DNA from: Candidatus Campbellbacteria bacterium
GTDB lineage: Bacteria; Patescibacteriota; Minisyncoccia; Phycocordibacterales; GCA-2747955
Length of the DNA stretch: 64,000 nucleotides
Direction: 5' to 3'
Assembly: GCA_002747955.1 (NCBI GenBank)
Contig: PDQZ01000010.1
Coordinates: 18,931 to 82,930, forward strand
Shown: positions 6,559-59,268 of the stretch, one piece after another
Position numbering within the stretch: position 1 is the first letter of the stretch
Layout of the letters: the number at the start of each line of letters is the position of its first letter
Position numbers and translations under genes: made by a program
Notes under the pieces: generated by a model
What the model was told of the DNA's origin: nothing
The model's input: only the letters and a program-made list of their open reading frames with translations
Databases searched by the model: none

Positions 6559-6631
6559 CCGCTTGTAGCTCAGTCGGTAGAGCAGCAGCCTTTTAAGCTG
6601 ACGGTCGAAGGTTCGAGCCCTTCCAAGCGGA
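6559..6631 (+). tRNA. tRNA-Lys (anticodon TTT)
   Basis: Cloverleaf: U8A9, D-arm GCTCAGTCGGTAGAGC, anticodon loop CTTTTAA (U33, anticodon UUU), T-arm GGTTCGAGCC. Acceptor pair C1:G72 and discriminator A. No encoded CCA. Confidence 0.8.
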
Positions 6632-33345: not shown

Positions 33346-35148
33346 ATGGGATTTTTTAATTTTGGAAAAAAAGAAAACAATAAAAATAATATAGAAGTAA
33401 CTCAGATTTTACCTCAGGAAATATACAAATCAGCGGTTTTGGATTTGAAAGACATTATCGCTCCATCAGCTTTAGATATTAAATCAAAATATTTAGATTT
33501 AGGAGATATTTTATCAAGAACATTTTTCATTATTTCATACCCAAAATTTTTATCAGATGGGTGGTTTTCACAAGTAATTAACTTAGATAAAGAGTTTGAT
33601 ATTTCAATTTTTATAAATCCACTTGAATCAGAAAGAGCTTTAAAAAATCTACAAAAAAAAATCGCCGAAGTTCAAAGTCAAATTATGGATAGAGAGAGAA
33701 AAGGTCTCGTGCGTGACCCAGCCCTTGATGCTGCTTATTTAAATATTGAAAAACTGCGTGACAAACTTCAGCAATCAACTGAAAAACTATATTCTATCGG
33801 TATTTACATTACTGTTTACGGAGAAAATGAAAAGGAACTTGATAAAGTAGAAACAGAAATCAAATCAATTTTAGAATCAAAACTAATTTACGTTCGACCC
33901 GCTGTTTTTCAACAAGCAGAAGGTTTTAAAACAACTTTGCCTTTAAATAAAGATTTATTAAATGTTACTTCAAAATTAAACTCAGAGCCATTAGCTTCAA
34001 TTTTTCCATTTGTTTCATTTAACCTAACATCCGACAATGGTATTTTATATGGAGTCAACAGGCACAACTCTTCTTTGATTTTGTTTGATAGATTTTCACT
34101 TCCAAACTACAACTCTGTGACTTTTGCTACTTCTGGTGCTGGTAAATCTTACACAACTAAACTTGAAATTCTAAGAACTTTAATGTTCGACACAGATGTA
34201 ATTATCATTGACCCTGAACGAGAATATGAATATTTAGCAGAAGCTGTTGATGGTCGATACTTCAATATTTCACTTTCTTCATCTCACCACATCAATCCAT
34301 TCGACTTGCCACCAGTAGGTCCAGAAGATGACCCTCAGTCAATTTTAAGAAACCAAATTGTTTCTTTGGTTGGTTTTTTCAGAATTATTTTTGGAGGTAT
34401 GTCTCCTGAAGAAGACGCTATGGTCGATCGAGCTTTGACCGAAACTTACGCTTTGAAAGATATTACTCCAGAAGTTGATTTTTCAGATATCGAACCACCT
34501 TTGTTGTCTGACTTTGAAATGGTTTTGTCAGGAACAGAAGGTTCTTCAACTTTAGTTTCAAAACTTTCAAAATACATTCGGGGTTCTTGGGCTGGATTTT
34601 TAAACAAGCCTTCAAATGTTGATATGGATAAAAAGGTAACAGTTTTTTCTATTCGTGATATGGAAGAAGACTTGCGTCCAGTTGCCATGTACTTGATTAC
34701 TCATCACATTTGGAACTCTGTAAGACGAAATTTGAAAAAAAGACTTCTGGTAATCGATGAAGCTTGGACCATGATGAAATCAGAAGATGCCGCATTTTTC
34801 TTGTTTGGTATGGCAAAAAGAGGCCGAAAATACTACTTAGGGCTTTCAACAATTACTCAAGATGTGGGAGACTTTTTGGGATCTGAATACGGAGTACCAA
34901 TTATTACAAACTCGTCTATGCAGATTTTGTTAAAACAATCTCCGACAACAATCGACAGGCTTCAAGAAGTTTTTAACTTAACCGAAGAAGAAAAAATGCT
35001 TCTGCTTGATGCAAATGTAGGAGAGGGAATTTTCTTTGCTGGAACAAAACACGCTGCAATCAAAGTTATTGCATCTTATACAGAAGACCAAATTATTACA
35101 TCTGACCCATCGCAGATTTTAGCTTTAAGGAAAAAAGGAATTCAATAA
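33346..35148 (+). CDS. VirB4/TrbE/CagE-family conjugal-transfer-type ATPase (ATPase core)
   Basis: Walker A FATSGAGKSYTTK and Walker B RLLVIDEAWTMM, with a conserved C-terminal region GLSTITQDVGDF. Confidence 0.85.
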   Translation: MGFFNFGKKENNKNNIEVTQILPQEIYKSAVLDLKDIIAPSALDIKSKYLDLGDILSRTFFIISYPKFLSDGWFSQVINLDKEFDISIFINPLESERALKNLQKKIAEVQSQIMDRERKGLVRDPALDAAYLNIEKLRDKLQQSTEKLYSIGIYITVYGENEKELDKVETEIKSILESKLIYVRPAVFQQAEGFKTTLPLNKDLLNVTSKLNSEPLASIFPFVSFNLTSDNGILYGVNRHNSSLILFDRFSLPNYNSVTFATSGAGKSYTTKLEILRTLMFDTDVIIIDPEREYEYLAEAVDGRYFNISLSSSHHINPFDLPPVGPEDDPQSILRNQIVSLVGFFRIIFGGMSPEEDAMVDRALTETYALKDITPEVDFSDIEPPLLSDFEMVLSGTEGSSTLVSKLSKYIRGSWAGFLNKPSNVDMDKKVTVFSIRDMEEDLRPVAMYLITHHIWNSVRRNLKKRLLVIDEAWTMMKSEDAAFFLFGMAKRGRKYYLGLSTITQDVGDFLGSEYGVPIITNSSMQILLKQSPTTIDRLQEVFNLTEEEKMLLLDANVGEGIFFAGTKHAAIKVIASYTEDQIITSDPSQILALRKKGIQ

Positions 35149-35181
35149 AATTAAAAATATGGTATAATAAAAATAAAAAAT

Positions 35182-35826
35182 ATGTCTATTATTAAACAAG
35201 AAAGTCAAAGAGTTGCAATCTTTATAGATGCTCAGAATTTATATCATACAGCGCGTAATTTATATAACAGTAATGTAAATTTTAAAAGCATTTTAGAAGA
35301 TACTTTACAAAATCGTAAGTTGATCAAAGCAGTGGCTTATGTTATAACAACAGAAAGCAAAGAAGAATCAAACTTTTTTGATGCTTTAGAAAAAGCAGGT
35401 ATCGAAACAAAGTCAAAAGATTTGCAAATTTTTTATGACGGAAACAAAAAAGCAGACTGGGATGTAGGTATTGCAGTTGATGCTATTAGACTTTCACCAA
35501 AAGTTGATGCTGTTATTTTAGTTTCAGGAGATGGAGATTTTATTCCACTCGTTGAATATTTAAAATTTCATTCAGGTTGTCAGGTTGAATGTGCAACCTT
35601 TAAAGAATCAGCCTCATCTGGACTTTTAAATGTTGTGGACGATTTTATTGATTTGTCTGAAAACAAAAAAAGATATATTATTCCTACTTCAAAAAACTTT
35701 AAAAAATACAAAAAGAAAAACAATCAGAAAAAAGAAAAACAGAAAAATATTCAAAAAGTTAAATTAAAAAAAGAAAATCAAAAGCCAAATTTGAAACAAA
35801 GAAAGAAACCGAATAATAAAAAATAA
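35182..35826 (+). CDS. NYN-domain (LabA-like, PIN-related) putative nuclease with a Lys-rich C-terminal tail
   Basis: VAIFIDAQNLYHTARNL...VSGDGDFIPLVEYLK, carrying acidic residues typical of the NYN fold. Basic tail KKYKKKNNQKKEKQKN... Confidence 0.65.
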   Translation: MSIIKQESQRVAIFIDAQNLYHTARNLYNSNVNFKSILEDTLQNRKLIKAVAYVITTESKEESNFFDALEKAGIETKSKDLQIFYDGNKKADWDVGIAVDAIRLSPKVDAVILVSGDGDFIPLVEYLKFHSGCQVECATFKESASSGLLNVVDDFIDLSENKKRYIIPTSKNFKKYKKKNNQKKEKQKNIQKVKLKKENQKPNLKQRKKPNNKK

Positions 35827-38795: not shown

Positions 38796-38805
38796 TTTTT
38801 TAAAA

Positions 38806-38890
38806 AGCCCGAAATTTTTTGTTTTTGAAAGTAAAAGTTGAAAGGCTCCGCCTTTCAACTTTTACTTTCAAAAACAAAAAATTTCGGGCT
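38806..38890. repeat. 85-bp perfect palindrome (40-bp arms, 5-nt loop) between convergent genes
   Basis: agcccgaaattttttgtttttgaaagtaaaagttgaaagg-ctccg-cctttcaacttttactttcaaaaacaaaaaatttcgggct. The arms are exact reverse complements. Confidence 0.85.
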
Positions 38891-38949
38891 TCTCCAACTC
38901 CAAAACAAAAAAGCAGTCACTGGTACAGCAACTGCCTTAAATTTTTTAC

Positions 38950-39300
38950 TTAACTATTCCAAGCTACAATTTTAAAGTCTGGATATAGCTTCCCAACAAT
39001 TTTTCCTATGTACTCATTGTCAGTACGACCATACCTTGACGATCTACCATTAACAAAAATTTTAGGAGTGATTTGTATGGCGATTTCGCCACCACCAATA
39101 ACCTTAAATTCTTTTTCGTATTTTTCTTGAGCAAATTTGACAATATCTTCATGATATTCATATTCTTGCAAGCTTAATGAAACAAGATATTCACTCCCTT
39201 GTTCATCTTTGAGATGAACAAATTTACCATATCCACCAGTTTTTTTAAGGTTGATAAAGACTGAAACTCCATCAACCATTTTTTCTACAATATCACTCAT
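38950..39300 (-). CDS. Small cytoplasmic protein, paralog 1 of a tandem pair (function unknown)
   Basis: 116 aa. VEKMVDGVSVFINLKKTGGYGKFVHLKDEQGSEYLVSL aligns with paralog 2. RBS aaaaaaggagaaaaacaATG. Confidence 0.6.
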   Translation of the reverse strand: MSDIVEKMVDGVSVFINLKKTGGYGKFVHLKDEQGSEYLVSLSLQEYEYHEDIVKFAQEKYEKEFKVIGGGEIAIQITPKIFVNGRSSRYGRTDNEYIGKIVGKLYPDFKIVAWNS

Positions 39301-39338
39301 TGTTTTTCTCCTTTTTTGTTTTAAGAATAAGTTATAAA

Positions 39339-39367
39339 ATTATAATATTTAAAAACCTATTTGTCAA
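39339..39367 (-). promoter_or_regulatory. Consensus sigma-70 promoter TTGACA-N17-TATAAT driving paralog 1
   Basis: On the - strand: TTGACA at 39367..39362, a 17-nt spacer, then TATAAT at 39344..39339. Confidence 0.6.
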
Positions 39368-39435
39368 TTATTTTTCTGTAAAATAAAAAAGCAGCCACTG
39401 GTGTAGCGACTGCTTTAAATTTTTTACCAAAATCT

Positions 39436-39768
39436 TTACATGGTTACCCGAACATATTTATGGGGTAAAACTTCTTGAAATGTTTTTATAATTTGACCCA
39501 AGTCCGTGTCTCCAATCATCTCACTTATGGAAAATGTAATTCCATAGCACCAAAACAAACCTTCGCATAAGACTGTAAGTCTCTTACCGTATTTTTTTTC
39601 GGAAAAGTTTACAGCATACTTATGAGTATAACAATCTATGTTTGGCAACGAAGTTAAGTAGCTATTGCCCTCATCGTCCTTAGCATAAATGAATTTTCCT
39701 TGATCGTTGTCGAAACAACAATCAATAAAAAAATTCACCCCATCAACTTTTTTTTCTACTACAGACAT
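39436..39768 (-). CDS. Small cytoplasmic protein, paralog 2 of the tandem pair (function unknown)
   Basis: VEKKVDGVNFFIDCCFDNDQGKFIYAKDDEGNSYLTSL. The likely start is the second ATG (MSVVEKK...), given the paralog alignment. The tracked ORF starts at 39780. Confidence 0.55.
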   Translation of the reverse strand: MSVVEKKVDGVNFFIDCCFDNDQGKFIYAKDDEGNSYLTSLPNIDCYTHKYAVNFSEKKYGKRLTVLCEGLFWCYGITFSISEMIGDTDLGQIIKTFQEVLPHKYVRVTM

Positions 39769-39806
39769 AACTTTCTCCATTTTTTGTTTAAAGAATAAGT
39801 TATAAA

Positions 39807-39835
39807 ATTATAATATTTAAAAAAATATTTGTCAA
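39807..39835 (-). promoter_or_regulatory. Second copy of the consensus TTGACA-N17-TATAAT promoter, driving paralog 2
   Basis: On the - strand: TTGACA at 39835..39830, a 17-nt spacer, then TATAAT at 39812..39807. The flanking 50 bp are near-identical to the paralog 1 promoter. Confidence 0.6.
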
Positions 39836-39844
39836 CACACTGAA

Positions 39845-39891
39845 AAGCCCGAAAATGACTTCGTCATTTTCGGGCCCAAACCCAAAAAACC
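39845..39891. repeat. Hairpin repeat family B, copy with extended 3' tail (agcccgaaaat...attttcgggccc + a/t-cccaaaaaacc)
   Basis: aagcccgaaaatgacttcgtcattttcgggcccaaacccaaaaaacc. Lies in a divergent spacer between paralog 2 and typA, so it is not acting as a terminator here. Confidence 0.7.
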
Positions 39892-39943
39892 TTCCAAACC
39901 TAACTTTCAGACTTTCCGTTTATGTGTTATAATTTCAAACATT

Positions 39944-41737
39944 ATGGAAATCAGAAACATAGCAATTATTGCCCACGTTGACCACGGAAAAACCACTTTA
40001 ACAGACGAGATTTTAAAACAAACTCAAATGGTAAAAGAAGGAGTTTCAATGGATTCAAACGATTTGGAAAAAGAAAGAGGAATTACTATTTACGCAAAAA
40101 ACACCTCTGTATTTTACAAAGATACAAAAATTAACATTTTAGATACACCAGGTCACGCCGACTTTGGATCAGAAGTAGAACGAGTTTTAAAATCAATTGA
40201 CTCGGTTTTGCTTGTAGTTGATGCTCAAGAAGGGCCAATGCCACAAACAAAATTTGTTTTGAAAAAATCTCTTGATTTAGGACTAAAACCAATTTTAGTT
40301 TTAAACAAAATCGACAAAGAAGGAGCCGACGTAGACAAAGCTCACGACCAAGTTTTTGACTTGTTTGTAGAACTTGGAGCAACAGACGAACAACTTGACT
40401 TTGATACTGTTTATGCAATTGGACGAGATGGAGTTGCAAAAACTTCAATGTCTGATGAACTAAAAGATATCACTCCGCTTTTAGATTTGATTTTAGAAAA
40501 AGTACCAGCTGCATCTTCTGAACAGAATATTAACTCAGAACTAAAAGCGCAAGTTTTCAACCTAGCTTACGACAACTTTTTAGGCCGAATGGGTATTTTA
40601 AGAATTTACGAAGGTAAAATCAAACAAGGACAAAACTTGTTTGTTAAAAACCATAACCAAGAAACTTTCACAGGAAAAGTTGTAAAACTTTTTACATTTG
40701 AAGGACTTGAAAGAAAAGAAGTAAAAGAAGCTCAAGCAGGGGATATTGTTATGTTAGCCGGAATTCCTGAAATTTTCATTGGACAAACTTTAGCTGAAAA
40801 TGAGGCTGCAGAACTTATGGACGAAATTAAAGTTGACTCTCCAACAATTTCTTTAAATATGTTTGTAAACGATTCTCCATTTTCAGGAAGAAGCGGAAAA
40901 TACTTAACTTCAAGACAAATCAGAGACCGACTTGAAAAAGAACTTGAAATGAACGTAGGTTTGAAAGTTGACTTTTCTGATGATTCAAAATATGTAGTTT
41001 ACGGACGTGGAGAACTTCACCTGGCAGTTTTAATCGAAAACATGAGAAGAGAAGGTTTTGAACTTGCTGTTTCATCTCCAAAAGTTATTACAAAAGAAGT
41101 TGACGGGCAAACTTTAGAGCCTTTTGAAGAAGTAAATATTTTAGTACCGGAAGAATTTTCAGGAACCGTTATTGAAAAACTTGGAAAAAGAAAAGGGGTG
41201 ATGATGGACATGCAAACTGACGAACATGGACAAACAAAAATTATTTTTGAAATTCCAACACGAGGACTTTTAGGATACAGAAACGAGTTTATCGTTGACA
41301 CAAAAGGAGAAGGGATTTTAACTTCATTGTTTTTAGATTTTAAACCTTATGCAGGAGAAATTTCAAAAACAGCACTTGGTTCAATGATTTCAATGGCAAC
41401 AGGAAAAGTTTTAGCCTTTGCTTTGACAACCCTGCAAGAAAGGGGAGAGCTATACATCAAACCATCAGACGAAGTTTACGAAGGAATGGTTGTGGGAAAC
41501 ACTTCAAAAGGAGAAGATATGACAGTTAACCCAACAAAAGGAAAACAGTTAACAAACATGCGTGCGTCTGGATCTGACGAAACTGTTCGGTTGACGCCGG
41601 CAACAGAGATTACTTTAGAAAAAGCAATTGATATTATTAAAGACGATGAGTTTATTGAAGTAACACCCAACGCTGTTAGACTCCGAAAAGAATTCCTAAC
41701 AGAAACCGAAAGAAAAAGAAACGGAAAAAAAGTTTAA
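39944..41737 (+). CDS. typA: Translational GTPase TypA/BipA
   Basis: IAIIAHVDHGKTTL, DTPGHADF and NKID, with EF-G-like domains and the BipA-specific C-terminal domain. Confidence 0.9.
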   Translation: MEIRNIAIIAHVDHGKTTLTDEILKQTQMVKEGVSMDSNDLEKERGITIYAKNTSVFYKDTKINILDTPGHADFGSEVERVLKSIDSVLLVVDAQEGPMPQTKFVLKKSLDLGLKPILVLNKIDKEGADVDKAHDQVFDLFVELGATDEQLDFDTVYAIGRDGVAKTSMSDELKDITPLLDLILEKVPAASSEQNINSELKAQVFNLAYDNFLGRMGILRIYEGKIKQGQNLFVKNHNQETFTGKVVKLFTFEGLERKEVKEAQAGDIVMLAGIPEIFIGQTLAENEAAELMDEIKVDSPTISLNMFVNDSPFSGRSGKYLTSRQIRDRLEKELEMNVGLKVDFSDDSKYVVYGRGELHLAVLIENMRREGFELAVSSPKVITKEVDGQTLEPFEEVNILVPEEFSGTVIEKLGKRKGVMMDMQTDEHGQTKIIFEIPTRGLLGYRNEFIVDTKGEGILTSLFLDFKPYAGEISKTALGSMISMATGKVLAFALTTLQERGELYIKPSDEVYEGMVVGNTSKGEDMTVNPTKGKQLTNMRASGSDETVRLTPATEITLEKAIDIIKDDEFIEVTPNAVRLRKEFLTETERKRNGKKV

Positions 41738-41874
41738 TAAAAAACAGTTAACCTAAAAAGTTAACTGTTTTTATGTTCACAAAAAATAATTGACAATATA
41801 ATTTAAAAATATTATAATAACCTTTGCTTTTTATAAGTGAAAAAAAATTCAATAACAAAAAACCGGAGTAAAAA

Positions 41875-42246
41875 ATGAATATCAGTCAAGATATTTTGGA
41901 AATAAGATTAAAAGAAAAAGAAGAGAAAGTTCTTCTTGATAAAAAAAATTTAAAGCAAGCAGTATTGATGGATAATGGTACTGACAGTGCTGATGATGCG
42001 GCTAAGCAGGAAGAGATTCGTAGACTTGATAAAACTTTACAGAACTCTAGAGAAGAATTAAGAAGAGCAAGAAGAGCTCTCAAAAAGTTTATATTAAATA
42101 AAAAAACTTTTGGTGTTTGTGTTGATTGCAATCAAAAAATACCCGATGCTCGAATCGAAGCTAATCCTGATGTTCAACGGTGTGTTGATTGTCAGGAAGA
42201 TTATGAATTTGAGCAAAGAAAAAAGGGGCTGAGAATCCCAGCTTAA
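41875..42246 (+). CDS. DksA/TraR-family C4 zinc-finger protein
   Basis: N-terminal coiled coil with DxxDxA-like acidic tip (DSADDAA). C-terminal CVDCNQKI...CVDCQ zinc finger. Confidence 0.7.
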   Translation: MNISQDILEIRLKEKEEKVLLDKKNLKQAVLMDNGTDSADDAAKQEEIRRLDKTLQNSREELRRARRALKKFILNKKTFGVCVDCNQKIPDARIEANPDVQRCVDCQEDYEFEQRKKGLRIPA

Positions 42247-53587: not shown

Positions 53588-53636
53588 AAAGCCCGAAAAT
53601 TGCTCCGCAATTTTCGGGCCCATTCCCAAAAAACCC
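53588..53636. repeat. Hairpin repeat family B, copy with extended 3' tail; terminator position after the large MTase gene
   Basis: aaagcccgaaaattgctccgcaattttcgggcccattcccaaaaaaccc. Compare 39845..39891. Confidence 0.7.
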
Positions 53637-56902: not shown

Positions 56903-56935
56903 AAGCCCGAAAACAGCGCAGCTATTTTCGGGCTT
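56903..56935. repeat. Hairpin repeat family B, copy 4
   Basis: aagcccgaaaacagcgcagctattttcgggctt. Confidence 0.6.
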
Positions 56936-58985: not shown

Positions 58986-59058
58986 TCCACCCAGAAGGAC
59001 TTGAACCTTCGACCTGCCGGTTAAGAGCCGGATGCTCTACCAACTGAGCTATAGGTGG
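58986..59058 (-). tRNA. tRNA-Lys (anticodon CTT)
   Basis: rc: ccacctaTAgctcagttggtagagc...ccgg-CTCTTAA-ccgg...ggttcaagtcc...tgggtgg-a. U33, anticodon CUU. Acceptor pair C1:G72. Confidence 0.75.
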
Positions 59059-59095
59059 ATAAATTAAAACTTACAGAAGAGTAAGTTTTAATCTG

Positions 59096-59177
59096 TGCCC
59101 AGGATGGGAGTCGAACCCATACCACCGAAGTGACAAGATTTTAAGTCTTGCGTGTATACCAATTTCACCACCTGGGC
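59096..59177 (-). tRNA. tRNA-Leu (anticodon TAA)
   Basis: rc: gcccaggTGgtgaaattggtatac...caaga-CTTAAAA-tcttg, a long variable arm tcacttcggtgg, T-arm ggttcgactcc, and acceptor cctgggc-a. Confidence 0.8.
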
Positions 59178-59195
59178 ATAACCTTACACACTAAG

Positions 59196-59268
59196 AGGCA
59201 TGGGCGGGAATCGAACCCGCGCAATGTCGGTTTTGCAGACCGAAGCGTTACCACTTCGCCACCATGCC
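59196..59268 (-). tRNA. tRNA-Cys (anticodon GCA)
   Basis: rc: ggcatggTGgcgaagtggtaacgc-tcggt-CTGCAAA-accga...gcgggttcgattcccgc-ccatgcc-t. Confidence 0.8.

Follow-up and report, generated by a model that had tools for sequence, protein, structure and literature searches.

In a stretch of 64,000 nucleotides (nt) from a metagenome-assembled genome (MAG) of Candidatus Campbellbacteria, referred to below as the window, two neighbouring minus-strand genes, A and B, were found to form two complete, separately terminated predicted transcription units. Each is monocistronic and carries a consensus promoter, an unstructured 5′ untranslated region (5′UTR) and a GGAG Shine-Dalgarno site. By profile and motif, B is canonical for the Pfam family PF05005 (Janus/Ocnus, PHPT1 family), within which it falls in a rare clade, and A is, on the same kind of evidence, a full-length, strongly diverged homologue with the PHPT1 fold. 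Comparison of the two units indicates that the coding cores separated long ago, while the flanks have a more recent ancestry or are under tighter constraint. The reading that we consider on balance probable is that of two strong single-gene units with PHPT1-fold products, in which old cores are combined with flanks that were homogenised or with an expression module that was re-used. A first-pass annotation of the locus, prepared from the nucleotide sequence, had explained the pattern by diversifying selection on proteins of unknown function. The latter description is replaced here by membership of the PHPT1/Janus family.

B matched PF05005 at 40.5 bits (cut-off 23; E = 3.3e-10) over profile positions 22-108 of 108, and the family was already listed in the precomputed annotation of the protein, of which the deposited product is hypothetical. 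Other families, SixA included, were not matched by A or B in Pfam or NCBIfam. In a sequence search of solved structures, only human PHPT1 was returned for B, via EYH[A/E]DI, GGG, YG and YPD[Y/F], HMMER pairing EYHEDI of B with EYHADI of 2AI6. Using a family profile built without A or B, hhalign placed B at 99.8% (E 2.4e-29). A family alignment was compiled from 29 sequences, including human PHPT1, which agreed with the 2AI6 alignment over its residues 50-120. Every residue invariant in this alignment is kept by B. The active-site features of B are His50, Lys26, GGG 69-71, Ser87 and Gly91; the columns of His50, Ser87 and Gly91 are invariant and those of Lys26 and Gly71 nearly so. In human PHPT1, the Gly-rich loop (G75-G76-G77) lines the active site, and the Ser loop (S94-M95-A96, then YG) and Lys21 are taken to bind phosphate. 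His50 of B and His49 of A both fall in the invariant column of human His53, which is placed where helix 1 starts. In PHPT1, this residue is the general base that activates water, and no phospho-enzyme intermediate is formed (PMC11277029). As corroboration, an AlphaFold2 model of B was obtained with a predicted local distance difference test (pLDDT) score of 94.2, and human PHPT1 chains were the only significant Foldseek matches in the PDB (TM 0.71-0.73, E down to 6e-8).

A gave no match to PF05005 even at E ≤ 10 and no PHPT1 match among solved structures. Its homology was established by hhalign against a profile of the clade from which A and B had been left out (97.8%, E 9e-13, 94 columns) and by phmmer against B (E about 1e-12). 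BLASTP aligned A and B with 40% identity over 68 amino acids (E = 9e-15), and 41/109 positions were identical in the full-length alignment. The paralogy claimed in the first-pass annotation was upheld by these scores as homology, but the similarity quoted in its favour, from 'GKF' onward, is conserved throughout the family, and only about the first 16-19 residues are specific to A and B. Following a phmmer search of all six-frame open reading frames (ORFs) of the window, A and B alone were returned, without any other family member. A retains His49, Lys25, Ser82 and Gly86. Its glycine loop reads CEG (C68-E69-G70) in place of GGG, the third glycine alone being kept; it has five residues fewer directly ahead of the Ser, and MIG stands in place of YG. 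The AlphaFold2 model of A (pLDDT 84.0) has its strands and helices in the same order as B, and Foldseek again gave human PHPT1 chains as the only significant PDB matches (TM 0.60-0.65, E about 3e-4). The two proteins are homologous by profile alignment, and a PHPT1 fold is predicted for both. Five cysteines are present in A (4.5%, versus 0.5% in the long ORFs of the window; p = 3e-4) and none in B. Those of A, C17, C18, C46, C68 and C74, lie in or beside the PHPT1 active-site loops (before Lys25, before His49 and at the first Gly of GGG).

The expression signals of the two genes were then compared. Upstream, a 56-nt block that opens with the -35 hexamer and reaches as far as the A-run ahead of the Shine-Dalgarno site was 53/56 identical between A and B (39780-39835 versus 39312-39367). 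Within it, the 17-nt spacer was identical at 15/17 positions and the 27-nt stretch from the -10 hexamer to the Shine-Dalgarno site at 26/27. Both promoters are perfect; the near-identical upstream blocks and textbook promoters of the first-pass annotation were confirmed. A 45-mer search of the window allowing ≤3 mismatches gave exactly two sites, promoters A and B, versus 0 expected from shuffles. Perfect TTGACA-N17-TATAAT promoters occurred three times in the 64 kb versus 0.05 expected, two of the three being those of A and B. The third (41790-41818), located upstream of a gene for a DksA/TraR-type zinc-finger protein (41875-42246), has the hexamers and AAATATTATAAT in common with promoters A and B, and nothing downstream of the -10. 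No significant structure was predicted for either 5′UTR (z -0.9 for A).

Downstream of the genes, the terminator blocks were 42/48 identical (39380-39427 versus 38902-38949), again as first described. Both form stable hairpins with a GC-stem and a U-tail (-19.9 kcal/mol for A and -17.0 kcal/mol for B), and both were also called by a terminator scan. All six differences between them are transitions. Checked by hand, the changes in the stems leave base pairing intact, with G.U pairs, in RNA of the minus strand alone, so the hairpins point the same way as the genes. Overall, the flanks of A and B are about 5-12% diverged. Further copies of the promoter block, which the first-pass annotation had suggested looking for, were absent from the remainder of the window, and the 25-nt core of the block was likewise absent from a genome and a metagenome contig collection (neither containing the source MAG), as was a degenerate terminator pattern from the latter. 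Terminator A is separated from the -35 hexamer of promoter B by 12 nt, and this junction sequence is unique. As predicted from these signals, the units are probably transcribed independently and strongly expressed. For gene A, an in-frame ATG is also present upstream at 39780 (39436-39780, 114 amino acids). The start at 39768 (110 amino acids) was retained because its GGAG aligns with that of B and because it agrees with the deposited protein P0002.

The coding sequences contrast with these flanks. Identity between A and B at third codon positions was 35%, versus 34% for random sequence of the third-position composition of the window and versus 53/56 and 42/48 for the flanking blocks, in line with the earlier description of flanks more conserved than the genes. 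Among 40 conserved residues for which alternative codons exist, A and B agreed in their codon at 14, versus 21.6 +/- 2.9 expected from genome codon usage. Synonymous sites are therefore saturated, a state that selection on the protein cannot bring about, and diversifying selection on recent duplicates is thereby excluded as a sufficient cause. From residue 20 of B onward, P0003, one of the relatives of about 330 amino acids described below, was identical to B at 36/96 positions (BLOSUM sum 202) and A at 25/90 (sum 79). A was no closer to B than to P0004, another such relative. In neighbour-joining trees, A and B were sisters in 66/200 bootstraps with all columns and in 1/200 without the first 19 residues. 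The tract that is specific to A and B runs from the -35 hexamer to about codon 16 (in the proteins, roughly the first 16-19 residues, with VEK.VDGV..FI) and resumes at the terminator, protein similarity from 'GKF' onward being family-wide. Because synonymous sites are saturated and no sister relationship is seen beyond residue 19, the cores appear to have separated long ago.

The following course of events would account for these observations. The promoter, the 5′UTR, the first ~16 codons and the terminator would have a much more recent common ancestry than the cores. Most likely, the two neighbouring units underwent short-tract gene conversion or recombined unequally, or a single expression module was used more than once; selection would afterwards have kept the consensus promoter and the pairing of the terminator hairpin. 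Gene conversion of the flanks, mentioned in parentheses in the first-pass annotation, thus becomes the favoured explanation. B would be enzymatically active and hydrolyse N-linked phosphate, on phosphohistidine and possibly on phospholysine or phosphoramidate. If PHPT1 is taken as the model, water would be activated by His50 as general base, with the phosphate held by Lys26 and by the GGG and Ser87 loops. A would have altered specificity or impaired catalysis; instead of duplicating the role of B, it may bind or regulate. From the position of its cysteines, it is conceivable that the phosphate pocket has given way to a metal or redox site.

Several points weigh against this reading. The flanks are below 100% identity, so that any gene conversion was not very recent, and conversion is deduced from a pattern in one genome. 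Neighbour-joining is unreliable on a long branch such as that of A. The outlying third-position GC content (GC3) of A, given below, rests on 110 codons, and a direct comparison of A with B gave p = 0.05. The alignments used as input for the structure models contained mammalian PHPT1, which makes the fold match partly circular and corroborative only. As to the substrate, we take Arg45 and Arg78 of human PHPT1 to be important basic substrate-binding residues. Their equivalents are Ser41 and Glu72 in B and are non-basic in most clade members (Y or W after GGG), and the substrate may therefore differ. The substrate surface of the clade, judged from these positions, probably differs from that of animal PHPT1, which has no bearing on fold membership.

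The main rival is purifying selection alone. An ancient tandem duplication would have occurred without gene conversion, and flanks and first codons would have remained near-identical solely through purifying selection on nearly every base, for instance because expression has to be maximal or because one repressor or RNA-binding regulator acts on both units. This is unlikely but has to be taken seriously: the similarity has sharp limits, at the -35 hexamer on one side and the U-tract of the terminator on the other, the stem changes preserve pairing, and the presence of AAATATTATAAT in the third perfect promoter suggests a preferred form of strong promoter. The same third promoter, however, has no shared sequence downstream of the -10. 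No requirement for a particular sequence is known for the spacer, the stretch from the -10 to the Shine-Dalgarno site or the loop region of the terminator, so that their near-identity is left unexplained, and the 5′UTRs have no significant structure. Moreover, terminator differences consisting of transitions only are typical of low, recent divergence and not of constrained saturation.

Less likely still is a replacement of the core, in which a somewhat GC-richer donor supplied codons ~17-110 of A through horizontal transfer and a resident expression cassette took them in, by recombination or capture, with its conserved ends as homology arms. The GC3 of A (0.336) was the highest of 55 window ORFs (mean 0.209, sd 0.033; binomial p = 0.002). 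The excess lies in the core, at 34/94 (0.36) versus 0.21 for the genome, with typical values in the first 16 codons (3/16) and in B (0.216). The atypical cysteine content of A would also fit such an import, as would its distance from B, which is not smaller than that from the rest of the family. Yet the codon sample is small, no donor-like sequence was found in 1.84 billion cluster representatives (best non-self match 68.8 bits), and the promoter and terminator blocks were found nowhere else searched, which leaves no evidence for a circulating cassette. An extension of this idea is very unlikely: the conserved promoter/N-terminal block and the terminator would be the homology arms of a portable high-expression cassette through which PHPT1-fold cores are swapped between cells, the core of A being an imported allele. 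An active N-phosphate phosphatase and a neofunctionalised partner (metal- or redox-binding, or a pseudo-enzyme) would then be used at high dosage by an episymbiont to erase phosphohistidine signalling.

Recent tandem duplication followed by diversifying (positive) selection with unchanged expression signals, as in immunity, antitoxin or surface-variation gene arrays, was the explanation put forward in the first-pass annotation. It is highly improbable. The two genes do adjoin, are homologous and have the same architecture, their flanks are far more conserved than the coding sequences, and A is strongly diverged in its functional loops. Synonymous sites are nevertheless saturated, which lies beyond the reach of selection on a protein and largely refutes this explanation; the cores of A and B are not sisters, that of B being closer to other candidate-phyla proteins than to A. 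Because of this saturation and because A and B are not closest relatives beyond residue 19, the sequences indicate that the pattern cannot be accounted for by a recent duplication with diversifying selection. The proposed type of array found no support either. No toxin, secretion, integrase, transposase or other mobile-element gene adjoins the pair. PADLOC gave nothing for B and a 15-bit, chance-level match for A, PHROG gave no significant match, NCBIfam gave nothing for A or B, and no match was obtained in a viral structure library at E ≤ 0.001. By inspection, signal peptides and transmembrane segments are lacking, the N-termini are hydrophilic, and the predicted fold is that of a phosphatase family.

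That two strain alleles of one locus were joined in tandem during metagenome assembly is scarcely credible: the source is a MAG contig and shared flanks could confuse an assembler, but the flanks differ at 3/56 and 6/48 positions and hence are distinct sequences, the 12 nt that separate terminator A from promoter B have a unique sequence, assemblers collapse allelic bubbles and do not concatenate them, and the core divergence is saturated, far beyond strain variation. Three further candidates were rejected by inspection only. Integron cassettes would not fit (no attC core sites, no integrase, a promoter for each unit), nor would a diversity-generating retroelement (no reverse transcriptase) or a surface protein (neither signal peptide nor transmembrane segment present).

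The coordinates of the two units and of the hairpins that bound them are listed in the table.

Table. Features of the two-gene locus and of the elements bounding it (positions in the window).
Feature	Position	Strand	Description
Gene A	39436-39768	-	110 amino acids plus stop; P0002; diverged paralogue, predicted PHPT1/Janus fold
Gene B	38950-39300	-	116 amino acids plus stop; P0001; locus tag CSB11_02605; canonical PHPT1/Janus-family domain by profile
Promoter A	39807-39835	-	TTGACA-17 nt-TATAAT; 12/12 to sigma-70 consensus
Discriminator and ~32-nt 5′UTR of gene A	39769-39806	-	GGAG Shine-Dalgarno 39775-39778, 6 nt before ATG 39768
Intrinsic terminator A	39380-39427	-	stem-loop 39388-39416 plus U-tract
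Promoter B	39339-39367	-	TTGACA-17 nt-TATAAT; 12/12
Discriminator and ~32-nt 5′UTR of gene B	39301-39338	-	GGAG 39308-39311, 7 nt before ATG 39300
Intrinsic terminator B	38902-38949	-	stem-loop 38910-38938 plus U-tract
Perfect palindrome, 87 nt	38805-38891	.	42-nt arms 100% complementary, 3-nt loop; between PBP2 stop codon and terminator B
Terminator-like hairpin	39845-39877	-	GCCCGAAAA..UUUUCGGGC plus U-tract; directly upstream of promoter A

The pair is a minus-strand islet, of unremarkable GC content, inside a long plus-strand run of housekeeping genes. A small membrane ORF and PBP2 lie upstream, and TypA/BipA, the DksA/TraR-type zinc-finger protein, a ZIP transporter and RNase HII downstream. 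The membrane ORF is labelled MreD-like by sequence inspection, with no family match behind the label. The TypA/BipA gene seems to have practically no leader (region 39906-39946): its ATG stands at 39944, shortly behind a TG-extended TATAAT whose last base is 39933, and no Shine-Dalgarno site is visible at this start. The 87-nt palindrome folds at -66 kcal/mol (z -14), is much longer than ordinary terminators and is probably a bidirectional terminator or boundary element. The hairpin upstream of promoter A has no minus-strand gene ahead of it and may be an insulator, a relic or the end of a small RNA. Both have the ends GCCCGAAA...TTTCGGGC in common with two further hairpins of the window. These belong to a family of short hairpins, AAAAGCCCGAAAA-N-TTTTCGGGC, with copies at 39845-39877, 53588-53619 and 56903-56933, which are terminators when read on the minus strand; the outer ends of the palindrome, AAGCCCGAAA...TTTCGGGCTT, match this family. 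GCCCGAAA occurs eight times in the window versus 0.66 expected, and the hairpins at 39877 and 53620 also have the flank GGGCCCAWWCCCAAAAAACC in common. Nothing at or above the gathering score was found with Rfam in the region, and sub-threshold matches to microRNA precursors were discarded as artefacts of the long palindrome.

Further away, a TraG/VirD4-like P-loop ATPase domain protein (600 amino acids) followed by an NYN-domain protein is encoded at 33346-35826; between these two and PBP2 are an ORF of 305 amino acids and a membrane ORF of 84 amino acids, neither with a Pfam match. This segment may be what is left of an apparatus for conjugation, type IV secretion or the uptake of DNA. Three tRNA genes are clustered at 58986-59268 on the minus strand, and a fourth lies at 6559-6631 on the plus strand.

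Relatives of the clade were collected by profile search. Close homologues of A or B were not found, word-index searches returning the query alone. Using an A+B profile, HMMER gave 41 matches at E ≤ 1e-3 among the 1.84 billion cluster representatives. The clade is characterised by the motif KF[VI]..D..G..Y[VL]I.LP....YH.DI..F....Y.K...V.GGG......K..I.G.S..YG.AD. Ten members were scanned against PF05005; all ten matched, nine above the cut-off and one (P0018, 19.1 bits) below it. The members with names are from Candidatus Paceibacterota MAGs (e.g. MEZ4211192.1 and HRH30785.1) and one archaeal MAG, all annotated as hypothetical. The remaining matches are unnamed metagenome proteins, and one Candidatus Saccharibacteria locus (L002) was added by a scan of a genome collection. 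The sequences closest to B are these clade domains (31-36% identity), and none exceeds about 36% identity to either A or B. A search for related loci with a narrow alignment of the ~330-amino-acid relatives gave two loci in candidate-phyla MAGs. By inspection of ORF translations, their neighbours are ThrRS, a repeat protein, a NusB/Nudix-like protein and RNase III, which offer no functional clue.

Many domains of the clade are part of proteins of 225-880 amino acids, unlike the stand-alone A and B. The fusions are with DUF4116 repeats or with a conserved C-terminal region of ~170 amino acids. In P0003-P0007 and P0016 (about 330 amino acids; L001 4995-5999, L002 2379-3308), an N-terminal YNKPET.EEL segment is followed by the PHPT1-like domain and by this C-terminal region, which carries the motif SENGSSFG.DT and has no Pfam match. 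In other relatives, of about 870-880 amino acids, the PHPT1-like domain is at the extreme C-terminus. P0003 showed a weak sub-threshold overlap with a phage MuF C-terminal domain (20.5 bits versus a cut-off of 27.6). No other tandem pair with flanks in common was encountered.

Human PHPT1 (14 kDa; PDB 2HW4, 2NMM, 2AI6) is related to B through the common Pfam family and to both A and B through the predicted fold, and as a stand-alone domain of about 115-125 amino acids it is of similar size. B keeps its catalytic His (EYH[A/E]DI), the equivalent of Lys21, the GGG loop and the S..YG loop; A has lost two of the three loop glycines and five loop residues. Sequence identity to human PHPT1 is only about 20-33%. 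PHPT1 is treated as eukaryotic in the literature (PMC6282199), whereas the host of A and B is a candidate-phyla bacterium. No description of bacterial PHPT1 homologues was found in the literature searched, of which the coverage was limited. The phosphohistidine phosphatase described for bacteria is SixA, of the histidine-phosphatase superfamily (PMC6282199, PMC7948535). The role presumed for B from its sequence, dephosphorylation of phosphohistidine, would be like that of SixA, but fold and mechanism of SixA are unrelated to those of A and B.

As an analogy for an enzyme beside a diverged paralogue, the locus may be likened to a Drosophila gene group. The janA, janB and ocnus genes, from which the Pfam family takes its name, are tandem, strongly diverged PHPT1-family paralogues, at least some copies having altered catalytic residues. 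They differ from A and B in being eukaryotic, with overlapping transcription units, testis-specific regulation and no shared promoter/terminator module. In concerted evolution of bacterial tandem paralogues, tracts of high identity are limited to parts of adjacent direct repeats, as is the case for A and B. The parts that would have been homogenised are here the non-coding expression signals and the first codons, whereas the coding cores are saturated.

The locus thus adds new PF05005 family protein(s), in a mosaic that is mildly unusual: the cores are old, and the expression signals are young or constrained. In the reduced genome of an uncultured Candidatus Campbellbacteria member, a canonical PHPT1-like protein and a remodelled paralogue are neighbours, and the promoters of both appear to be very strong. 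Neither the PHPT1-like pair nor the mosaic pattern overturns current understanding. The mosaic is a compact example of flank similarity that misleads: it resembles fast protein evolution and is better read as concerted evolution or re-use of a regulatory module. If B is active, it would serve as a simple prokaryotic model in which to study how PHPT1 works, and would offer a lead on the histidine (N-) phosphorylation of such organisms.

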